Assembly (NCBI GenBank): GCA_030526535.1
Contig: JAUNCP010000001.1
Span: forward strand, 1-46,907
Length of the DNA stretch: 46,907 nucleotides
DNA from: Clostridia bacterium
GTDB taxonomy: Bacteria; Bacillota; Clostridia; Oscillospirales; Acutalibacteraceae
Direction: 5' to 3'
Shown piece after piece: positions 9,748-37,322 of the stretch; position 1 is the first letter of the stretch; each line of letters begins with the position of its first letter. Under the pieces are notes generated by a model. It was not told the DNA's origin. It did no database searches and was given only the letters and a program-made list of their open reading frames with translations. Both the position numbers and the translations under genes were made by a program.

Positions 9748-10140
9748 CTATGTATCAAAATTAAATAATTTTATACCAAACCCAAGCCATCTGCCGTCTA
9801 TATCTTCTAAAACTAACTCTTTATTATCATAGTCAGTTACAGAAAGCCTTTTTACAACTTTAAGCCCTTTGCTATCAAATTCCTCTTGTAATTCTTCTTG
9901 ATTATTTACGATTATATAAATGTCATATCCATAACCATACAATTCATGGTTTGGAATAACTTTTTGACCTTTTGAATCTGTGAGTATTATTTCTACATCG
10001 TCTTTGTACAGACATATATGTGGTTCTTTGGCATTTAGATATTCAACGGCATCAAATCCTAATTTTTGAACGTAAAAATCAGCAGTTTTTCCGATATTTG
10101 GTGTAGGAAAAACGGGATGCGTAAAATACATTCTTTTCAT
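9748..10140 (-). CDS. glyoxalase/bleomycin-resistance (VOC) family protein
   Basis: 130 aa with the beta-alpha-beta-beta-beta style pattern (FYVQKLGF...; DIDGRWLGFG) seen in bleomycin-resistance-like VOC proteins. Confidence 0.6.
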   Translation of the reverse strand: MKRMYFTHPVFPTPNIGKTADFYVQKLGFDAVEYLNAKEPHICLYKDDVEIILTDSKGQKVIPNHELYGYGYDIYIIVNNQEELQEEFDSKGLKVVKRLSVTDYDNKELVLEDIDGRWLGFGIKLFNFDT

Positions 10141-10179
10141 AAATTATTTTTTCTCCTTTTCGATTTTAATTCCATATAA

Positions 10180-10225
10180 TATCAAAAATCATCTGCCGTA
10201 CTTACCAAAGCAGATGATTTGCTTT
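10180..10225 (-). terminator. Rho-independent terminator downstream of the glutamine synthetase gene
   Basis: 10-11 bp stem: aaatcatctg(c) at 10186-10196 pairs with (g)cagatgattt at 10210-10220. A T-rich tract follows on the minus strand. Confidence 0.6.
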
Positions 10226-10233
10226 TAACTAAA

Positions 10234-12324
10234 CTATACACTAAAAAGAATATCTTCATATGTCGGATACGGCCAATATTCTTTCGGCATTATGGTTTCC
10301 GCTTCATCAACAAGAATTCTGACTTTATTCATAGTTTCTAAAACAATATCTTTATATTTATTAGCACACTCGGAAATATCTGAAATCTTATTTGCATCTT
10401 TATCTTGAATATAAAGCTTATTTACAGATTTATATATGCTTGACGATATATCACTTAGTCTTTTTAATGTCTCTGTTTCGTAAATCAAAGTAAAACCTAA
10501 ATTGCATTTATTATTTACAGATAAAGATTTATTTAATTTATACATATATTTACTAATTGCGGGCAGTATCTCACTATTTATCATACTGACCATAGCTTTT
10601 GCTTCTATATGAACTATCTTACAATAATTGCTCATGTGAATTTCATATCGAGAAATAAGCTCACGCTTAGAAAGGACCTTGTGCGTTTCAAAAAGCTTGA
10701 TATTTTTTTCATCTAAAGAACGTTCAAGAGCATCTACTGTCGTTTTTAAACTGTACAGGCCACGCTTTTTAGCCTCTTCTTCCCATTCTTTCGAATAACT
10801 ATTGCCATTAAATATAACTCGTTTGTGTTTCTTTATAGTTTCTATAAACAAAGAATTTAATTTCGACGACGGATTTGACGATTTTTCAAGTTCGTCAGCA
10901 AATTCTTTTAATGCTTGTGCAACTATTGTGTTTAGTATCATGTTCGGAGAAGCTACAGATTGACTGGAACCCGCCATTCTGAATTCAAATTTATTTCCTG
11001 TAAATGCAAATGGCGATGTACGATTTCTGTCGGAGTTATCCTTCGGAAAATGCGGAAATACATTTAAGCCTATTTCAAAATTACCACTCCGCTTACTGGT
11101 ATAAATTTCACCATTTTCAATAGCGTTCAAAATTTTCATTATTTCATCGCCAAGATAAACAGAAACTATAGACGGCGGTGCTTCATTTCCGCCAAGACGA
11201 CAATCATTTCCGGCAGAGGAAATTGAAATTCTTAATAAATCGGCATATTCATCTACGGCCTTTATTGTGGCACACAAGAACGTTAAAAATTGTATATTGT
11301 CTTGTGGTGAATTTCCGGGATTAAGCAAGTTAATACCGGTATCAGATGATAAAGACCAGTTGTTGTGTTTTCCGCTTCCATTTATAGAATCGAAAGGTTT
11401 TTCGTGTAAAAGACAAACTAATCCATGTTTTTCGGCTGTGGTTTTTAACAATTCCATTATTATGTGATTTTGATCAGCGGCAAGATTGCAATATGTGTGA
11501 ATCTGTGCAACTTCATGCTGTGCTGGTGCAACTTCATTATGTTTGGTTTTAGAAGGAACGCCTAATTTCCAAAGTTCTTCATCTAAGTCTTTCATAAATT
11601 CCGCCACTCTGGGTTTCAGAGCGGCATAATAATGGTCTGACAAATCTTGTGCTTTTATTGGCTTGGCTCCAAACAAAGTTCTACCGCAAAAAATCAAATC
11701 ACGTCTTTTTTTATATACATCTTTATCTATCAAAAAATATTCCTGCTCTGCGCCCATGGTAGGGGTAACTTTTTTTATTTTATCATTTCCTAAAATTCTT
11801 AAAACTCTGAGCGATTGTTTATTAAGCGCATACATTGATTTTAAAAGAGGCGTTTTTTCATCCAAAACCTCTCCGCTATACGAACAAAAAAACGTCGGAA
11901 TGTACAGAGAATTATTTTTTATAAAAGGGTACGACGTCGGGTCCCAAGATGTATAACCTCTGGCTTCAAACGTAGCTCTCAATCCACCGGACGGCAGACT
12001 TGATGCGTCTGATTCGCCTTTTATAAGTTCTTTACTTGAAAAATTCATTTCCACTTTTCCGTCTGAATCAAAATTCAAAAAGCTATCGTGTTTTTCGGCT
12101 GTTATTTCGGTTAATGGTTGAAACCAATGAGTATAATGTGTTGCGCCTCGTTCTAATGCCCATTCTTTCATCGCTTGAGCTACAACTTCACCGATTTTTG
12201 AATCAACAGGAGAATTTTCTTTTATTGCTTTTTTTAAGTCAGAATAAACTTGCGCAGGTAATCTTTTTTTCATTTCCTCATCGTTAAAAAGCATACTTGC
12301 GTACATTTCAGGAATATTTGTCAT
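10234..12324 (-). CDS. glnN: glutamine synthetase type III
   Basis: ~700 aa with an N-terminal MFNDEEMKKRLP..VY..L pattern, and core motifs (GAEQEYFLID; NGSGKHNNWS; NRTSPFAFTGNKFEFR) typical of GSIII. Confidence 0.85.
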   Translation of the reverse strand: MTNIPEMYASMLFNDEEMKKRLPAQVYSDLKKAIKENSPVDSKIGEVVAQAMKEWALERGATHYTHWFQPLTEITAEKHDSFLNFDSDGKVEMNFSSKELIKGESDASSLPSGGLRATFEARGYTSWDPTSYPFIKNNSLYIPTFFCSYSGEVLDEKTPLLKSMYALNKQSLRVLRILGNDKIKKVTPTMGAEQEYFLIDKDVYKKRRDLIFCGRTLFGAKPIKAQDLSDHYYAALKPRVAEFMKDLDEELWKLGVPSKTKHNEVAPAQHEVAQIHTYCNLAADQNHIIMELLKTTAEKHGLVCLLHEKPFDSINGSGKHNNWSLSSDTGINLLNPGNSPQDNIQFLTFLCATIKAVDEYADLLRISISSAGNDCRLGGNEAPPSIVSVYLGDEIMKILNAIENGEIYTSKRSGNFEIGLNVFPHFPKDNSDRNRTSPFAFTGNKFEFRMAGSSQSVASPNMILNTIVAQALKEFADELEKSSNPSSKLNSLFIETIKKHKRVIFNGNSYSKEWEEEAKKRGLYSLKTTVDALERSLDEKNIKLFETHKVLSKRELISRYEIHMSNYCKIVHIEAKAMVSMINSEILPAISKYMYKLNKSLSVNNKCNLGFTLIYETETLKRLSDISSSIYKSVNKLYIQDKDANKISDISECANKYKDIVLETMNKVRILVDEAETIMPKEYWPYPTYEDILFSV

Positions 12325-12476: not shown

Positions 12477-12565
12477 GGAGCGGTATCGAAGTGGTCATAA
12501 CGGGGCTGACTCGAAATCAGTTTGCGGGCAACCGCACGTGGGTTCGAATCCCACCCGCTCCGCCA
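12477..12565 (+). tRNA. tRNA-Ser (anticodon CGA), CCA encoded
   Basis: Hand fold: acceptor GGAGCGG/CCGCTCC; anticodon stem GCTGA/TCAGT with loop CTCGAAA; long variable arm TGCGG-GCAA-CCGCA; T arm GTGGG-TTCGAAT-CCCAC. Confidence 0.9.
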
Positions 12566-12653: not shown

Positions 12654-12682
12654 TTGTCAGTATTTTATAAGTTTAGTATAAT
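12654..12682 (+). promoter_or_regulatory. sigma-A-type promoter of the leader-kinase gene
   Basis: TTGTCA (12654-12659), 17-nt spacer, TATAAT (12677-12682). GGAGG at 12700-12704 follows. Confidence 0.55.
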
Positions 12683-12705
12683 GTTAAGTAAAAAATTTAG
12701 GAGGG

Positions 12706-14040
12706 ATGGCTATGTACAAAGTAATATTGTTTTTTGAATTTTTAAAAAATAACAAGGAAATCTTAAAAGACGTAGATATCAATGATTTGAGTCTTAAAAA
12801 CGTAGAAGACAATATTGTACCATTGGCAAAAGAGAACGGATTTGAAATTAAAGCCAAAGATATTTTTAGATTTTTTAATGAGTATAGTGAATATTTAGAA
12901 AATGAAGCTAGCTTAATTGATGATAATAATCTAGAAAAAATTGCAGGTGGCATGTGTAATTTTAATAAAGTTATGGCAACAAGCTTTCTTTCTCTTACAG
13001 GACTTATCGGATCCATAGTCAACAATCAAGCATACGCTACTTCTGAAAATGAAAATTTATCGACTATAAAAAAATCTTCAATCAAAACCGTAAAAAGTCA
13101 AATTGACAATACTTTAAGTGATGCAGAAATAAAATATTATCAAGGAAAAATTGGCGAAGAGTACAAATTTGTAAGCAACAAAGGTATGAGTGGCTCTTTT
13201 GCAACTGCTTATAAACTTGAAGACAAAAATGGAAACGAATTTGTTTTAAAAATATCAAATAACCCAGAAAATTCCGAACGGTGGATACAAAATCAAAAAA
13301 ATACAAACGAAAAAATCAAAAAATATTACAAAAATTATCGCGGAGAATTAAAAATCACAAATTATACCAAATTTGGCGATGATTTTGTTATTGAAGAATA
13401 TTTGGGAGAAAGAGTTAATTTCAACGAAAGTTATATAAAAGACAATCCAGAATACTTTGTGAATAGTATGGCTGAATTTTTTAAATACACTCATAAATGT
13501 GAAAAAACTGCTGGCATGTCAATTAATGACGCGTTGTTTAAACACATTAAATTAAATGATGTATATGAATATTTAGACAAAGCCAAAGCACTAAATGAAG
13601 AAGATAAAAAAATGCTAAGTAAATTAATAACCGATTTTGAAAATCGTGATAAAAGTGATGAAAATATTTGTTCTTTGGTTCACACAGATATAAGAGCTCA
13701 AAATATAGTTTATAATCCTAAAACAAAAAAATTCGCTTTAATTGATTTCGATTCTTTATTTGTTGGTGCGCCAATATATCTTAGTTTCACATCTAGAACA
13801 ATAGGTTCTTGTGGTATACCTTTTGAATTAATTTCAAAAACAATCGATAAATACAATGAGATTTCAGACATAAAAGTAAAAAAAGAAAAAGTCAGAGAAT
13901 TACACAAAATTGGCAATTTAATGGAACTTTATATGTGCTCAAAATACAGAGATCGTAATAGTAACGAATATATTCGTACCTATCTTTGGCCAAACATAAA
14001 GAGTCGCTTTCTAGCAATCGATAAAGGTTTCAAAAACTAA
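12706..14040 (+). CDS. Nif11-like/double-glycine leader domain fused to a hydrophobic segment and an APH/choline-kinase/CotS-fold phosphotransferase domain
   Basis: aa 1-82 end in ...LIDDNNLEKIAGG after ...IVPLAKENGFEIKAKDI (Nif11-type leader pattern). Then MCNFNKVMATSFLSLTGLIGSIVNNQAYA (signal/TM-like). Kinase motifs: KGMSGSFATAY, FVLKI, LVHTDIRAQNIVY, LIDFD. RBS spacing favours the ATG at 12712. Confidence 0.7.
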   Translation: MAMYKVILFFEFLKNNKEILKDVDINDLSLKNVEDNIVPLAKENGFEIKAKDIFRFFNEYSEYLENEASLIDDNNLEKIAGGMCNFNKVMATSFLSLTGLIGSIVNNQAYATSENENLSTIKKSSIKTVKSQIDNTLSDAEIKYYQGKIGEEYKFVSNKGMSGSFATAYKLEDKNGNEFVLKISNNPENSERWIQNQKNTNEKIKKYYKNYRGELKITNYTKFGDDFVIEEYLGERVNFNESYIKDNPEYFVNSMAEFFKYTHKCEKTAGMSINDALFKHIKLNDVYEYLDKAKALNEEDKKMLSKLITDFENRDKSDENICSLVHTDIRAQNIVYNPKTKKFALIDFDSLFVGAPIYLSFTSRTIGSCGIPFELISKTIDKYNEISDIKVKKEKVRELHKIGNLMELYMCSKYRDRNSNEYIRTYLWPNIKSRFLAIDKGFKN

Positions 14041-14099
14041 TTTTAACTTTTATTCATTGAATAACTAAACGTTAATTGATATCATAGTCATCGAGATTA

Positions 14100-14468
14100 T
14101 TGACTATGATATTTATTTTAGGAATGATTTTTATTTCTTTAGCAGGGAGCGTTTTACATTTCGCTTACGAAGGAAGCGGTCACAATAAAGTTGTGTCTAT
14201 TTTTAGTACGGTTAACGAAAGTACCTGGGAACACATTAAAATCGCTCTTACTCCAACTTTTCTTTGGAATATTTTAGACGTGCTGATTTATTTTTCTAAT
14301 CCGAACTATCTTTTGGCAAAATTTTTAAGTTTACTAACAATTTTGTTAGCAATACCAATGCTTTTTTATACTTATACATTATTCACTAAAAAAGCAGATG
14401 TATGGTTATTTGTCATATGTCTCTTTTTTACTGTTTGTAACATATCAATTGTAATCCTACGGTTTTAA
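14100..14468 (+). CDS. small polytopic membrane protein (DUF6512-like)
   Basis: The pattern LHFAYEGSGHN..VSIFSTVNESTWEHIKI plus four hydrophobic helices resembles that family from memory. The start is ambiguous (14100, 14106 or 14124). Confidence 0.5.
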   Translation: MTMIFILGMIFISLAGSVLHFAYEGSGHNKVVSIFSTVNESTWEHIKIALTPTFLWNILDVLIYFSNPNYLLAKFLSLLTILLAIPMLFYTYTLFTKKADVWLFVICLFFTVCNISIVILRF

Positions 14469-33384: not shown

Positions 33385-35607
33385 TTATGTACTATTTTCT
33401 TTGTGCATAAATCCAACCGTCACAGTAGTTCCGGGTTTAACCTCTGTGCCTTCGGGTATACTTTGTGTTGCTGAAATTACTCCAGATTGCGTCAAATCCG
33501 TTCCGGAAAACTTAACGTTGATATTTGAGTTTATAGCCAATTTATTAACTTGAGCAACAGATAATCCTATAAGCTTTGGAACTTTCACTGTACTTTCCTC
33601 ACCTTTATTTTCAGTATAAATAACAACCGTTCCGCCTTTTGGGATTTGTTCGTTAGGCAAAGGCATTTGGGAAATTACCTTTTCTCCATTTCCTATTACA
33701 ACCGGACTTAAATAATTTTCTGAAATACTGTTTTTTGCCTCATTTACGGTTTTACCTATTACGTCTGGTGCTTTAGCGTCAAGCTTTTTAATTTCATCTT
33801 CTGTATATATTTTTTCTATTCCCATATAAGGAAGTATTTCTTGCATCATTTTTGCAAATGCCGGTGCAGCTACGGCGCTACCATAATATAATCCGCCTGT
33901 AGGTGTATCAAAAAACACTAAAATAGCGATTTTAGGATCATCATATGGAGCAAATCCACAAAATGAAGATATATAGTCCTTTATCCCGTGAGTACTAAGA
34001 CCTATTTTTTCTGACGTACCGGTTTTTCCTGCAATTCTGTAACCTGGCACATATGCATTCTTTGCGGCACCATTTACAGCATTTTCATAAAGCATAGCGG
34101 TTACTCTTTTGGCCGTTCTTTCGGATATAACTCTTCTTTTAATAAACGGGTCAATAGATTTTACAATATTTCCGTCTCCGTCCAAAATTTCTTTAACTAT
34201 ATGCGGTTGAACCAAATTTCCGCCATTTGCGATTGTTGAAGCCGCTGTAATCATTTGAATTGGCGTTATACCGAAATTTTGACCCATAGAAGCAACTGCT
34301 AAATCCGTTATAGACATTTTCCCGTCTGCACTGAAAAATAAATCTGTAGATTCTCCGGGTAAATCTATATTGGTTTTATTATGAAATCCAAACGACTTAT
34401 AAAAATTAAAAAAATTTGAAGTACCAATTCTTTGTCCCAACTGTATAAATGCCGGGTTACATGAATTACATAACGCACGTACAAAATCCTGTGTTCCATG
34501 TCCGCCACGCTTATGACATCCTATCGCTTTAGCACCTTCGCACGGCTTAAATGAACCGCTACAAGTGAATGTTGACTGTTCGTTCACAACATCAAGTTCT
34601 AATCCCATAGAAGCTGTTACCATCTTGAAAACAGAACCCGGATAATATGTATCACTTACGGCTTTATTTCTCCATTGCCTTGAAAGTGCTTCGCTTTTAG
34701 CCTTTTGCCGCTCTTCTTCAGGTAAATTATCAATAGTTTCTTTTTCTTCCTCATCGCAAATTTTAAAAGGTTCATTGGGGTCAAAATCGCCTTTAACAGC
34801 CATGCCTAAAATTTCGCCTGTTTTTACGTCCATAGCTATTGCGGCGGCTCGGTTTTTTACCTTGTTATTTTTTATTCCTTCTTCCAAATTTTTTTCCATT
34901 ATTCTCTGAATTGTTTCGTCTATGCAAAGTCTTAAATTGCAACCGGATTTAGTTGGAATCATTTGCTCATAATCAAAAGGCATGTCTGTTCCGATAGCGT
35001 TTTTTGCTGTAAGAATTCTTCCGGGCTCACCTTTCAAATACTTATCATAAAACGCTTCTATTCCGGCTAAACCTTGACTGTCAGCTCCTGTAAAACCTAA
35101 AACCACCGAAGCAAAATTTCCAAGCGGATAATATCTTTTGTAGTCCTCTATAAGCCTTACTCCGCTTGCAATTTTATTTTCAGATTTAAACTGCAAAATT
35201 TTATCTTTTACATCACTGTCAACTTTTTTCTTTATTATCGTATAACAAGACCTTTTCTTAGATAATTCATAAAGCTTTTCTTTTTCCAGTCCTAAAATTT
35301 CGCTCATACCATTACAAATTATTTCACGTTTTTTATCACTGTCTATGTAAGCCGGCTCTAAAACAACCGTCCATACAGTAGCGCTTTGTGCCAACGGTTG
35401 CATATTTCTGTCATAAATAGTTCCACGCTGTGCACTTATTTTAGTATCAGCCATTTGTTGCTCAGATGCCATACGTTCAAAAAATTCGCCTTGAAAAATC
35501 TGTAAATTTACAAGCCTGAATATCAATAGTGAAAAACAAAAAATAACCAGCACGAATAATATTACGACAACTCTATGCCGCATCCTCACGGTAGTTCCCT
35601 TAGCCAA
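33385..35607 (-). CDS. class B penicillin-binding protein (PBP2B/SpoVD/FtsI-type) with two C-terminal PASTA domains
   Basis: N-terminal TM and dimerisation domain. Transpeptidase motifs PGSVFK, SCN and KTGTS. Two PASTA-like repeats (PDVIGKTVNEAK...; VPKLIGLSVAQVNKL...). Confidence 0.9.
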   Translation of the reverse strand: MAKGTTVRMRHRVVVILFVLVIFCFSLLIFRLVNLQIFQGEFFERMASEQQMADTKISAQRGTIYDRNMQPLAQSATVWTVVLEPAYIDSDKKREIICNGMSEILGLEKEKLYELSKKRSCYTIIKKKVDSDVKDKILQFKSENKIASGVRLIEDYKRYYPLGNFASVVLGFTGADSQGLAGIEAFYDKYLKGEPGRILTAKNAIGTDMPFDYEQMIPTKSGCNLRLCIDETIQRIMEKNLEEGIKNNKVKNRAAAIAMDVKTGEILGMAVKGDFDPNEPFKICDEEEKETIDNLPEEERQKAKSEALSRQWRNKAVSDTYYPGSVFKMVTASMGLELDVVNEQSTFTCSGSFKPCEGAKAIGCHKRGGHGTQDFVRALCNSCNPAFIQLGQRIGTSNFFNFYKSFGFHNKTNIDLPGESTDLFFSADGKMSITDLAVASMGQNFGITPIQMITAASTIANGGNLVQPHIVKEILDGDGNIVKSIDPFIKRRVISERTAKRVTAMLYENAVNGAAKNAYVPGYRIAGKTGTSEKIGLSTHGIKDYISSFCGFAPYDDPKIAILVFFDTPTGGLYYGSAVAAPAFAKMMQEILPYMGIEKIYTEDEIKKLDAKAPDVIGKTVNEAKNSISENYLSPVVIGNGEKVISQMPLPNEQIPKGGTVVIYTENKGEESTVKVPKLIGLSVAQVNKLAINSNINVKFSGTDLTQSGVISATQSIPEGTEVKPGTTVTVGFMHKENST

Positions 35608-36137: not shown

Positions 36138-37322
36138 TTACATGTAACCCAAATCAGTGTTATGTACATTTAATATGAAATTATCAATAACTCCACCAAA
36201 AAGATCTTCATCTTTATTCGTAAAACATGAATCATAAATATTTATTACTGAATCTGAACAACTACGAAATGCATACATTCCTGCTCTAGCTCTCACAATG
36301 TTTAACGTTAAATTACAAAATCTAGAAAAAGAATCGCTAGAAATTTCGAACTTTTGTTCTCTTTCCGGTCTTATTGTAAAAATAATATTTCCACAGTCTA
36401 ACATATTATTAGAAATATCAATATGGTCATTTCTAATTTCCGGAATTTCTACTCCTTTTTTCTTCAATTCTTGAATTATATATCTTAAGTGACGACGTCC
36501 TAATTTGTTACCTTTTTTAACAACAATATATACTAACGCTTTTTTAGATTTTCCATTATTACTTTCTATTGTATCTATCGTGTATTTTATACCTTCACAT
36601 TCTTCAGAAAGCTCTAAGTCATCAAATTCTGAAGCCATACAGTTCATAAATTTTTTCAGACGATTATATTTATCTTTGTTATTTTTAATAGAAAGTAATC
36701 CTTCAAGTTCAATTGATAAATTTTTTTCTAATTCTTGATAATTTTGATACTTTTCTTTAATTCTTTGTATACGTTCAGCAATTTTTTGAATTTTTTCTTG
36801 ATCGGAATTGCTATTTGAAGAATGTTTATTTAATTTTTCTAATTTAAGTTCTAATTCAAATATTTCTTGAACATCTTTAACTTTACTAATTAACTCATCG
36901 CTATATTCTTTATCATATCCATTAATAAATAAAGCGTTACGTATAATTTCATCTATTCCAAAACTATAATCAAAAATAATTTTTTTATCTTTAATTTCAT
37001 CTACATTAGTTTCAGAACCATATAAACATAACGTTTGTAATTGTGGAAACAATTTTGTTACATTTTCTTTCGTAACTGGAATGGGATTAATATGCGTCAT
37101 TTTCAGAGTATCTAAACATTTTTTATTTATTTGTGCATATTTAATCAATGTTTCTTTATCACGTATCTTTTGCATAACACTCAACAGGAAAATTTTTCCT
37201 AATCCTTTTTTATTAGAACTCATAGCACTTACGCTTTGAATACCAACTAATCCTCCGGTCAATAGTGTTGTTCCAAGAACAAATGTTAAAAGTTTTTTTC
37301 TGATTTTCTTTAAATTGGACAT
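36138..37322 (-). CDS. secreted protein with a central coiled-coil and a C-terminal LRR-like (BspA-type?) xLNIY repeat array, ending at a premature-looking TAA
   Basis: Signal peptide MSNLKKIRKKLLTFVLGTTLLTGGLVGIQSVSA. Coiled-coil segment ELELKLEKLNK...QRIKEKYQNYQELEKN. C-terminal repeats CNLTLNIV.../SVINIYDS.../FILNVHNT... AGAGGAGA RBS. Confidence 0.7.
   Translation of the reverse strand: MSNLKKIRKKLLTFVLGTTLLTGGLVGIQSVSAMSSNKKGLGKIFLLSVMQKIRDKETLIKYAQINKKCLDTLKMTHINPIPVTKENVTKLFPQLQTLCLYGSETNVDEIKDKKIIFDYSFGIDEIIRNALFINGYDKEYSDELISKVKDVQEIFELELKLEKLNKHSSNSNSDQEKIQKIAERIQRIKEKYQNYQELEKNLSIELEGLLSIKNNKDKYNRLKKFMNCMASEFDDLELSEECEGIKYTIDTIESNNGKSKKALVYIVVKKGNKLGRRHLRYIIQELKKKGVEIPEIRNDHIDISNNMLDCGNIIFTIRPEREQKFEISSDSFSRFCNLTLNIVRARAGMYAFRSCSDSVINIYDSCFTNKDEDLFGGVIDNFILNVHNTDLGYM

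Follow-up and report, generated by a model that had tools for sequence, protein, structure and literature searches.

A Nif11-type double-glycine leader placed directly before a Sec-type signal peptide on a predicted kinase precursor and other large proteins of Clostridia

As a rule, double-glycine leaders are found on bacteriocins, RiPPs, pheromones and other small peptides, and Sec signal peptides are the N-terminal tags of exported proteins. In a stretch of 46 907 nt from a Clostridia bacterium (called the window in the following) a single gene appears to join a sequence of each kind to a kinase-like domain. This raises the question of how such a protein would be processed and on which side of the membrane its enzyme part would work. 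We refer to the arrangement of leader, two glycines (GG) and signal peptide as the cassette, and to the protein part behind it as the cargo.

The kinase-precursor ORF is present as an earlier note on this DNA gave it (12706..14040, forward strand, 444 aa), and the surrounding elements named there were all found in the sequence as well. A tRNA-Ser gene with the anticodon CGA, detected by ARAGORN, is located immediately upstream (12477..12565, forward strand) and is regarded as context only. The leaderless paralogue P0018 (see below) likewise lies directly downstream of a tRNA gene. The sigma-70-like promoter TTGTCA-17-TATAAT (12654..12682, forward strand) agrees with the consensus at 11 of 12 positions; it is a consensus match only, and promoter-like sites are abundant in this AT-rich region (19 seen compared to 13.5 expected by chance). 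The Shine–Dalgarno sequence GGAGG (12700..12704, forward strand) is there too, but the start assigned to it had to be corrected. It directly abuts the ATG at 12706 and is better spaced for the ATG at 12712, which follows it by 7 nt. As the orthologues all begin with MYKV and a database protein identical to the window protein (P0001) has a length of 442 aa, position 12712 is most likely the true start, and the predicted precursor would comprise 442 aa rather than 444 aa. Residue numbers (G160, K182, GG81-82 etc.) nevertheless follow the 444-aa ORF.

Downstream of the kinase gene a small membrane protein of the type DUF6512 is encoded (14100..14468, forward strand; Pfam annotation of the syntenic loci L011-L013). 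Only in the closest orthologous loci does this gene adjoin the kinase, the remaining family loci lacking it, and whether the two proteins are functionally linked is uncertain. Conserved synteny was discarded as a functional clue, since the neighbourhood in the window is shared by an 85%-identical orthologue only. We also rejected a gene fusion or assembly artefact: the same unbroken ORF occurs in many independent assemblies, and its leader shows coding-type selection.

The N-terminal part (12712..12951, forward strand, 80 aa, MYKVILFF...LIDDNNLEKIAGG) is composed of a helical domain and a flexible GG tail and has a net charge of -7. It carries I at position -12, L at -7 and I at -4 in front of the two glycines, whose codons are located at 12946..12951. 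TIGR03798 was the top match of each of the 14 family leaders (best E = 1.1e-7), and no other family was hit by more than a single leader. The window leader itself reaches 24.4 bits (E = 2.5e-5), which is below the curated cutoff of 32.3 bits; P0127, a cassette protein with another cargo, passes this cutoff with 39.9 bits. The profile of the leader family (A3) matches a Nif11 domain protein in the PDB, 9zn4_A (E = 8.5e-8), through the terminal LEAVAGG, and an exhaustive HMMER search with the leader profile retrieved 98 classical short Nif11 precursors ending in ...ELxxVAGG. A Foldseek comparison of the isolated N-domain model with the PDB gave no match, and in the AF2 model the leader is helical with a pLDDT of about 81 (range about 81-95). 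In an alignment of 25 family sequences GG81-82 is invariant in every member with the N-domain, and most homologues keep the leader. In the comparison with the 85%-identical orthologue, the leader has a pN/pS of 0.13 and the kinase domain one of 0.14. As purifying selection on the leader is as strong as on the kinase domain, we regard the leader as translated sequence and not as a gene-calling artefact. Profile matches and conserved positions identify these 80 aa as a true Nif11-type double-glycine leader, in agreement with the proposal made earlier for residues 1-82. What follows the GG in the window protein is not a short RiPP or bacteriocin core, but 362 aa made up of signal peptide, linker and kinase.

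Directly behind the GG we found a Sec-type signal-peptide segment (12952..13038, forward strand, MCNFNK-VMATSFLSLTGLIGSIV-NNQAYA). It covers residues 83-111 and is thus internal, beginning at residue 83 of the 444-aa ORF and not at the extreme N-terminus. The segment consists of an n-region with Lys, an h-region of 17 aa and an A-x-A site, here A-Y-A, with a predicted signal peptidase I cut at A111|T112. Our signal-peptide call combines a heuristic rule (K/R, hydrophobic stretch, [AVST]-x-A) with the leaderless paralogues, and all elements of this rule are kept in all kinase family members. Four leaderless paralogues (P0018, P0025, P0027 and P0028) begin exactly at the equivalent segment and have ribosome-binding sites of their own, and in two of them (P0018 and P0027) an upstream leader ORF is absent. 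The segment is disordered in the AF2 model and has a pN/pS of 0.41, a faster evolution than that of its flanks and typical of signal peptides. Since the leaderless paralogues start there, and since segments of this kind are largely confined to GG proteins with large cargos (see below), we read it as a functional signal peptide; judged by these homologues, the segment after the GG is of the Sec type, and of the two roles considered for this hydrophobic stretch in the earlier note, signal or anchor, the paralogues bear out the first. A low-complexity linker rich in Ser, Thr and Lys follows (aa 112-135; 13039..13110, forward strand) and would form the N-terminus of the predicted mature protein. 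The model gives it a pLDDT of <50 up to residue 124; in the family alignment (A1) it varies and contains many gaps, and its pN/pS is 0.51.

The remaining part (aa 136-444 and stop; 13111..14040, forward strand) was modelled by AF2 with a pLDDT of about 90, and Foldseek placed it among the APH and macrolide phosphotransferase kinases. The top PDB matches were MPH(2')-II (5igz, E = 4e-10) and APH(2'') (3hav), both with a probability of 1.0, and the structural neighbours are macrolide, aminoglycoside and ethanolamine kinases at 12-18% identity. In the 25-sequence alignment the G-loop residue G160, the beta-3 Lys K182 (13249..13251, forward strand) and N333 are invariant; the latter belongs to the Brenner motif H326-T-D328-IRAQ-N333 (13681..13704, forward strand), whose H326 and D328 are conserved in at least 90% of the sequences, as is the metal-binding Asp D347 of the D347-F-D motif (13744..13752, forward strand). 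Against Pfam APH (PF01636) the window protein scores 19.6-20.3 bits, under the gathering threshold of 23.2 bits. Relatives exceed this threshold (P0031 with 35.5 bits, L006 with 32.3 bits), several have precomputed matches, and some family kinases are fused to Peptidase_MA_2 modules. Taken together, the predicted structure and the alignment indicate that the C-terminal ~310 aa is an APH-type kinase fold with intact catalytic motifs. The motifs that had led the earlier note to an APH/CotS fold are conserved in the family, with the fold now placed next to MPH(2') and APH(2''). Of the refuting outcomes named in that note, those on the leader profile, the start of the homologues and the kinase motifs did not come about. 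An exported ATP-dependent kinase raises the question of where ATP or GTP would come from outside the cell.

The combination of leader and signal peptide is not unique to this kinase; the earlier note knew no described example of either of the two architectures that it considered. By an exhaustive profile search we found about 20 other clusters of large proteins (318-1007 aa) with the same cassette, and it is common to at least 10 unrelated cargo types, among them APH+Peptidase_MA_2, fn3 and BspA-LRR proteins, ADP-ribosyltransferase (ADPrib_exo_Tox) and TNT toxins, a phosphoesterase (Metallophos) and calpain-like and S41 peptidases. The leaders in front of the internal signal peptide range from 36 to 82 aa and the cargos from 230 to 920 aa. 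The shortest leaders, those of 36 aa in the S41 peptidases, have no folded domain and keep the same motif; they pass TIGR01847 (17.1 compared to 15.7 bits) and TIGR03949 (22.6 compared to 21.5 bits). A word-index search with a divergent cassette alignment (A4) gave three homologues. A metagenome scan with the cassette alignment (A5) yielded one further true example (L025); a second hit (L026) was rejected as a chance match to a phage ATPase. Among 24 non-redundant cassette proteins, position -12 is L, I or V in 24, position -7 is L in 23 and position -4 is V or I in 24, and the GG is present in all 24. Across unrelated cargos the two glycines are the only invariant residues of the cassette, with -4, -7 and -12 the next best conserved. 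This pattern agrees with the published PCAT consensus (PMC12184118), and for LahT150, a C39 domain from Lachnospiraceae, the last 13 leader residues suffice and any P' sequence is tolerated (PMC6363468). Of the 38 proteins that continue for at least 150 aa beyond the GG, 34 have a segment resembling a signal peptide behind it, compared to 6 of 72 short precursors. We conclude from these comparisons that leader, GG and signal peptide form a modular cassette in large, presumably exported proteins of uncultured gut Clostridia. In the literature that we compared (PMC2887384, PMC6363468, PMC10885120, PMC12184118, PMC8277102, PMC3482391, PMC11928666 and PMC13556189), whose coverage of the field is incomplete, we found no description of a GG leader directly before a Sec signal peptide on large proteins.

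For a candidate enzyme acting on the GG we searched for PCAT and C39 peptidase genes. In the 46.9-kb window no ORF combines a Walker A motif with LSGGQ; an ORF of 740 aa (33385..35607) was considered as a PCAT and dismissed, as it encodes a PBP2B/SpoVD-like protein and not an ABC transporter. A tblastn search with the PCAT of L021 and with its C39 domain alone gave nothing in ~404 kb of cargo loci, and the surroundings of about 18 cargo loci, to a distance of ~10 kb, hold no PCAT. The extension of the L002 cluster by ~6.6 kb (L030) likewise held no PCAT and added four CPBP genes; in L002/L030, L009 and L028 the kinase has CPBP/Abi immunity-type genes as neighbours. As a control, the classical short Nif11 precursor P0175 adjoins a PCAT. 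That the window protein would be a PCAT cargo is something we infer from sequence.

On balance we favour the reading that the product of the gene is a precursor in three parts from which an extracytoplasmic kinase would arise, probably by Sec export combined with GG cleavage on the cytoplasmic side. The hydrophobic segment would engage Sec with the N-terminus kept in the cytoplasm; we propose this N-in orientation because of the acidic leader and the basic residues right behind the GG. The kinase of ~330 aa would be translocated and then freed by signal peptidase I after A-Y-A, presumably to act on a substrate and draw on a supply of ATP or GTP outside. The leader would be left on the cytoplasmic face, where a C39-type peptidase with its gene elsewhere in the genome, be it a PCAT protease domain or a C39 enzyme on its own, would cut it at G81-G82. 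The cut at the GG may come before translocation, in which case a normal signal peptide would be exposed and export licensed, or afterwards, in which case a signal-peptide fragment of ~29 aa would be cleared or released. That Sec would carry the large cargo, with the GG leader as an added processing element on the cytoplasmic side, is suggested by the contrast between 34 of 38 large and 6 of 72 short proteins. Against this reading count the lack of C39 and PCAT genes in the window and the ~404 kb of cargo loci, the scores of the window protein under the curated cutoffs, the missing PDB match of the isolated N-domain and the nucleotide supply that an exported kinase would need. This reading keeps the leader, signal and kinase parts recognized in the earlier note, and it appears more likely than both options drawn from them there, namely export of the whole protein by a PCAT and a membrane-anchored ecto-kinase.

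The first alternative to Sec export with GG cleavage is that the GG is not cleaved at all. The protein would then be bitopic with its N-terminus inside and its C-terminus outside, or a Sec substrate with a long folded n-region, which we consider unlikely. The same holds for the accompanying role of the Nif11 domain in chaperoning, regulation or partner binding instead of as a leader. The absence of PCAT and C39 genes near the ~18 cargo loci would be in line with it, as would a folded helical bundle (pLDDT about 81-95) under the same purifying selection as the enzyme domain, and the Pfam Nif11 family includes non-leader proteins too (PMC2887384). However, the sole invariant residues of the cassette, the two glycines, and the next best conserved positions -4, -7 and -12 are exactly the C39 recognition set, for which a purely cytoplasmic domain would have no use. 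Moreover, the S41 leaders of 36 aa keep the motif without a folded domain and pass the bacteriocin double-glycine signal model, and a permanent membrane anchor is hard to reconcile with the conserved A-x-A site.

A second alternative, to which we give rather little weight, is that a PCAT exports the whole cargo: after the cut at the GG, the entire polypeptide of 360 aa would be threaded through the transporter with the hydrophobic segment as the mature N-terminus. Equally doubtful in our view is the role that this segment would then have, as a membrane-associating or bacteriocin-like module and not as a Sec signal. All C39 recognition residues are borne by the leader, and the match of the S41 short-leader cassette to the class IIb bacteriocin model TIGR03949 extends over the leader into the first part of the hydrophobic segment. 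Hydrophobic cores behind the GG are also found in many short Nif11 precursors, and the CPBP/Abi immunity-type genes beside several of the kinases point in the same direction. Very large unfolded proteins are indeed threaded by type I secretion ABC transporters, which are related to PCATs (PMC8277102). Against whole-protein export, the characterized PCAT cargos are small and fit an alternating-access cavity (CtA with 90 aa, MAM with 135 aa; PMC6959990, PMC12184118, PMC8277102), and no PCAT lies near any examined cargo gene. In addition, the full n-h-c layout with [AVST]-x-A, which such a route does not need, is specific to the large cargos, and the same segment serves as an ordinary N-terminal signal peptide in the leaderless paralogues.

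The cassette could also be a dual-use export signal, a speculative idea that we rate as rather improbable. Here the leader-GG-signal peptide left over once Sec has translocated the cargo and signal peptidase I has cut would be a complete precursor like that of a class II bacteriocin, from which a PCAT, cutting at the GG, would expel the cationic hydrophobic signal peptide of ~29 aa as a bacteriocin or pheromone, and the CPBP/Abi proteins encoded beside several loci would provide immunity or processing.

Very improbable, finally, is an alternative start, with the GG codons acting as an internal Shine–Dalgarno-like sequence, the Met after the GG initiating an isoform with a plain signal peptide, and, just as improbably, the leader-bearing isoform being minor, regulatory or vestigial: 7 of 24 cassettes have a Met at +2 and the window protein has one at +1, S41 genes read TCA GGA GGA ATT ATG with a perfect AGGAGG 4 nt before the ATG, and the leaderless paralogues show that a short form is viable, but the spacer in the window gene is 1 nt (GCA GGT GGC ATG), a leader pN/pS of 0.13 excludes a vestigial leader, and the conservation at -12, -7 and -4 is unexplained by a ribosome-binding site. 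A start at Met83 was also discarded as a general rule for the homologues, as most of them have Lys after the GG and no Met nearby (e.g. GGKGNFNRVMAA).

Sec export with GG processing, as we prefer it, shares single elements with several known systems. Nif11 leaders (TIGR03798/N11P, as in ProcA and LahA, with PCATs such as LahT) likewise have an N-domain of ~80 aa ending in L(-12)...[DE](-8)-L(-7)-E-x-V(-4)-[AS]-G-G, and this leader type occurs in Clostridia also (PMC6363468). Known Nif11 precursors, however, have a core of ~15-70 aa and are usually clustered with a PCAT and/or modifying enzymes, as seen for P0175, whereas the cassette proteins have a Sec signal peptide, a cargo of 230-920 aa and no PCAT nearby in the examined loci. 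Precursors of class II bacteriocins and MAM (PCAT1/CtA, Faecalibacterium MAM) share the GG leader with hydrophobic residues at -4, -7 and -12, and MAM is an example of a non-bacteriocin protein for which gut Clostridia employ a PCAT (PMC12184118); yet their cargos do not exceed ~135 aa, their genes lie beside a PCAT and none is described with a Sec signal peptide after the GG. With ordinary Sec signal peptides the segment has the n-h-c layout and the A-x-A site in common, and the paralogues use it as an N-terminal one. Extended signal peptides are known from autotransporters (ESPR) and Gram-positive proteins (KxYKxGKxW), but here the signal peptide is internal and follows a leader of 36-82 aa with its own protease site. 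To our knowledge, the known signal-peptide extensions carry no double-glycine cleavage motif. The kinase domain resembles the APH/Mph, choline/ethanolamine (PF01636/PF01633) and CotS kinases in its bilobal fold, H-x-D-x4-N, D-F-D and beta-3 Lys; it differs from them by an identity of 12-18%, and the known ones stay in the cytoplasm or are assembled within the mother cell, whereas the family has export signals. Type IV prepilins (class III) offer an analogy only, in that the leader is cut after a Gly on the cytoplasmic face, before a hydrophobic segment. They are cleaved by the aspartyl protease PilD instead of a C39 cysteine protease, have the site G|FTLIE, another leader length and no A-x-A, and share no homology.

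Cassette proteins are prone to mis-annotation as RiPP precursors, or to being overlooked by signal-peptide predictors on account of the internal position of the signal peptide. An exported kinase of the APH fold would be unusual, as few small-molecule kinases are secreted, and the enzymes closest to it in structure confer macrolide and aminoglycoside resistance. The fusion of both tags in a fixed order on at least 10 unrelated families of large proteins, ADP-ribosyltransferase and TNT toxins included, suggests that protein export, or its regulation, involves an undescribed step in these abundant but uncultured gut Clostridia. If GG cleavage licenses Sec export, these cells would have a new means of gating the release of toxins and enzymes. 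Should the signal peptide be bioactive once released, it would link protein secretion to peptide signalling or antagonism, and should the dual-use reading be true, a bioactive peptide would leave the cell alongside each large effector, whether this is a kinase, a toxin, a protease or an adhesin.

The 444-aa open reading frame reported in the earlier note was found at 12706..14040 (+), together with its GGAGG ribosome-binding site (12700..12704) and the upstream tRNA-Ser(cga) gene (12477..12565). The GGAGG abuts the ATG at 12706 and lies 7 nt 5' of the ATG at 12712, all orthologues start with MYKV, and P0001, a database protein with 100% identity, has 442 aa; these observations all point to 12712 and not the longest-ORF start at 12706 as the true start (residue numbers below follow the 444-aa frame). 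A promoter-like TTGTCA-17-TATAAT sequence is present as well (12654..12682, 11 of 12 positions match), but since such matches are frequent in this 31% GC DNA (19 observed vs 13.5 expected) we regard the proposed promoter only as plausible. Between the stop codon and the DUF6512 gene we observed a perfect 10-bp inverted repeat (ATCATAGTCA / TGACTATGAT, 10-nt loop) followed by a T-rich run (14081..14110), possibly a weak terminator. It overlaps the TTG given as the start codon of the DUF6512 reading frame, which may in fact begin at the ATG at 14106. The window is a piece of the chromosome of a spore-forming clostridial bacterium and carries Spo0A, SpoIVB, SpoVAD, GlnA type III, DnaB, TilS and FtsH; every related locus stems from an uncultured gut MAG assigned to the Clostridia or 'Eubacteriales'.

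The leader (aa 3-82, ending in a double glycine, GG) had been described as Nif11-type. Searched alone it matches the NCBIfam model TIGR03798 (Nif11-like leader; E = 2.5e-5), the match stopping exactly at the GG, although its 24.4 bits fall under the curated cutoff of 32.3 bits. TIGR03798 is matched by all 14 kinase-family leaders (best E = 1.1e-7), whereas no other family is matched by more than a single leader, and the leader profile aligns end to end, including the terminal LEAVAGG, with 9zn4_A, a solved 77-aa 'Nif11 domain-containing protein' (E = 8.5e-8). In the AlphaFold2 model residues 2-68 form a helical bundle, followed by a flexible tail bearing the GG; a Foldseek search of the small isolated leader model against the PDB library gave no match. 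Compared with the 85% identical orthologue at L011, the leader has a pN/pS of 0.13, equal to the level of the kinase domain (0.14), which indicates that it is translated and under selection.

The segment directly after the GG (aa 83-111, MCNFNK-VMATSFLSLTGLIGSIV-NNQAYA) resembles a Sec signal peptide, one of the two readings in the earlier note: it shows the n-h-c layout and an A-x-A site, and it evolves faster than the flanking parts (pN/pS 0.41 against the same orthologue). Four paralogues of the kinase family (P0018, P0025, P0027 and P0028) are without a leader and start directly at the equivalent segment. The DNA of P0018 and P0027 shows a ribosome-binding site for each and no leader-coding sequence upstream, and for P0018 a tRNA gene is located where this sequence would be. 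Because these paralogues begin at the same segment with ribosome-binding sites of their own, we infer that aa 83-111 works as a signal peptide and that the kinase domain is exported. A tRNA gene is thus found immediately upstream of both the window gene and P0018 (L016 9775..9860), in otherwise unrelated neighbourhoods, a position that would fit an accessory gene, perhaps one gained by insertion. Elsewhere in the window, a 394-aa protein annotated without function (36138..37322 (-)) carries an ordinary N-terminal signal peptide (MSNLKKIRKKLLTFVLGTTLLTGGLVGIQSVSA).

For the kinase domain (aa 136-444) the AlphaFold2 model (pLDDT ~90) matched macrolide 2'-phosphotransferases and APH(2'') enzymes in Foldseek (E = 4e-10, probability 1.0, 12-18% identity). 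Across 25 sequences G160, K182 and N333 are invariant, and conservation of H326, D328 and D347 is 90% or higher; these residues make up the Brenner motif HxDxxxxN and the DFD. Fold and motifs therefore agree with the proposed APH-type kinase, although the Pfam APH score of the window protein (20.3 bits) lies just under the threshold of 23.2 bits, which its relatives exceed. Long kinase variants of 687-909 aa (L004 395..3040, L006 3616..6261, L009 4540..7269 and P0031) have one or two fused C-terminal Peptidase_MA_2-like modules with a HEFTHA (HExxH) motif, and the S41 peptidases of L002 and L014 end in the same module.

An exhaustive HMMER search with the leader profile in 1.84 billion representative proteins gave 125 matches at E ≤ 0.001. 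Classical short precursors of 66-170 aa (mostly 85-160) make up 98 of these, most running to ELxxVAGG and then a short core, and ~20 are much longer (318-1007 aa). These large proteins all show the same order: Nif11-like domain, L-E-x-V-[AS]-G-G, K/R-containing hydrophobic stretch, A-x-A-like site, cargo. Their cargos are mutually unrelated and of types typical of extracellular proteins: APH kinase fused to Peptidase_MA_2, fn3, BspA-type LRR, ADP-ribosyltransferase exotoxin (two tandem genes at L018), TNT toxin, calcineurin-like phosphoesterase, calpain-like protease and S41 peptidases. A segment was counted as signal-peptide-like by a simple rule: at least one K/R before a hydrophobic stretch, a hydrophobic window score ≥1.6, no more than one acidic residue, and [AVST]-x-A behind the stretch. 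Of the proteins in which the GG is followed by at least 150 aa, 34 of 38 show this pattern, vs 6 of 72 short precursors; large cargo and post-GG signal peptide therefore go together.

Both exotoxin genes (L018 8262..9941 and 10001..11677; 559 and 558 aa) encode a Nif11-type GG leader according to the HMM, with the post-GG signal peptide confirmed for the second (P0083) only; they stand among the housekeeping genes MutL, RecJ, RelA and AlaS. The fn3 protein P0153 (L024) and the kinase P0010 (L028) adjoin prophage or mobile-element genes (DUF927 primase, terminase-like, HNH, family-A DNA polymerase), and after P0153 come genes for a 950-aa ankyrin-repeat protein and an Imm-NTF2-like protein. Three proteins of ~200 aa (P0054, P0070, P0149) contain two tandem Nif11-like leader domains; the GG ends both domains in P0054 and the second only in P0070 and P0149, where a short hydrophobic core follows the final GG.

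The S41 peptidase genes adjoin the kinase gene in three loci (L002 4829..6904 (-), L009 2855..4369 (+), L014 6651..8750 (-)). Their leader is shorter (36 aa, NLTENDLENVSGG followed by IMNRKLAASVL), precedes a signal peptide and scores above the curated cutoff of both TIGR01847 and TIGR03949, which model double-glycine bacteriocin signals. In these genes translation could conceivably begin at the Met after the GG, as the junction TCA GGA GGA ATT ATG offers a perfect AGGAGG 4 nt before the in-frame ATG, possibly giving a plain signal-peptide isoform. Such an internal start is unlikely for the window gene, where the spacer is just 1 nt, and for most kinase-family members, which have no Met after the GG.

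In 24 non-redundant cassette proteins the two glycines and nothing else are invariant, followed by V/I at -4 (24/24), L at -7 (23/24), L/I/V at -12 (24/24) and D/E at -8 (17/24). These leader positions are the published C39-domain recognition determinants of peptidase-containing ABC transporters (PCATs; consensus quoted in PMC12184118). For LahT150, from a Lachnospiraceae PCAT acting on Nif11-type leaders, the last 13 leader residues suffice and any sequence is accepted after the cut (PMC6363468). Because the best-conserved positions coincide with these determinants and the LahT150 requirements agree, the pattern argues strongly for a C39-type enzyme as the predicted protease cutting at the GG. 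The same conservation, together with the 36-aa leaders without a folded domain, disfavours an ecto-kinase that retains an uncleaved Nif11-like domain in the cytoplasm, one of two options in the earlier note. The other option, a PCAT exporting the whole enzyme, is also less likely, because the signal-peptide layout is specific to large cargos and the PCAT cargos known so far are small. That layout, universal in the large cargos, and the leaderless paralogues argue that Sec, not an ABC transporter, would carry the cargo.

The exporter gene anticipated earlier was not encountered at locus level: no PCAT or C39 gene was found in the window, in ~404 kb of cargo loci or in the extended L002/L030 cluster (no PCAT within 20.7 kb). 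Since the classical short precursor P0175 does adjoin a PCAT, along with modification-type genes, at locus level this absence near cargo genes is real. Precursor genes can, however, be dispersed and depend on a PCAT encoded far away, as is known for the prochlorosin precursors. We lean modestly towards a mechanism in which Sec would translocate the kinase, signal peptidase I would release it, and a C39 peptidase would remove the leader on the cytoplasmic side, either before export (licensing) or after it (to clear or set free the signal-peptide fragment). With a net charge of -7 the leader is acidic, and basic residues follow directly after the GG; both features would fit an N-in orientation.

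L002 (2637..11329) and L030 (contig CALWJB010000034.1) contain a cluster of GG-leader genes: the kinase (Nif11 leader and signal peptide), the S41 peptidase (short GG leader and signal peptide) and a 208-aa protein (L002 4164..4790 (-)) with Nif11-like leader, GG and two-TM bacteriocin-like cargo, accompanied by a stand-alone MA-like peptidase (L002 9153..9959), PadR/HAAS genes and four CPBP/Rce1-like genes. In both L009 (7353..9628) and L028 (9349..12399) the kinase gene is directly followed by three CPBP/Rce1-like (PF02517) genes for intramembrane proteases. CPBP/Abi proteins are characteristic of loci for bacteriocin immunity (or processing), which leaves a faint possibility that the hydrophobic peptide set free by cuts at the GG and the A-x-A site might itself be bioactive. 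The CPBP-bearing loci (L002/L030, L009, L028) are probably related by descent and therefore count as about one observation.

Nif11/GG leader, Sec signal peptide and APH fold are each already known; in the literature searched we found no description of GG leader, Sec signal peptide and cargo fused in this order on large proteins. What makes the predicted cassette highly interesting is its recurrence, judged from computational evidence throughout, on many families of cargo, toxins among them, in gut bacteria that are abundant but uncultured.
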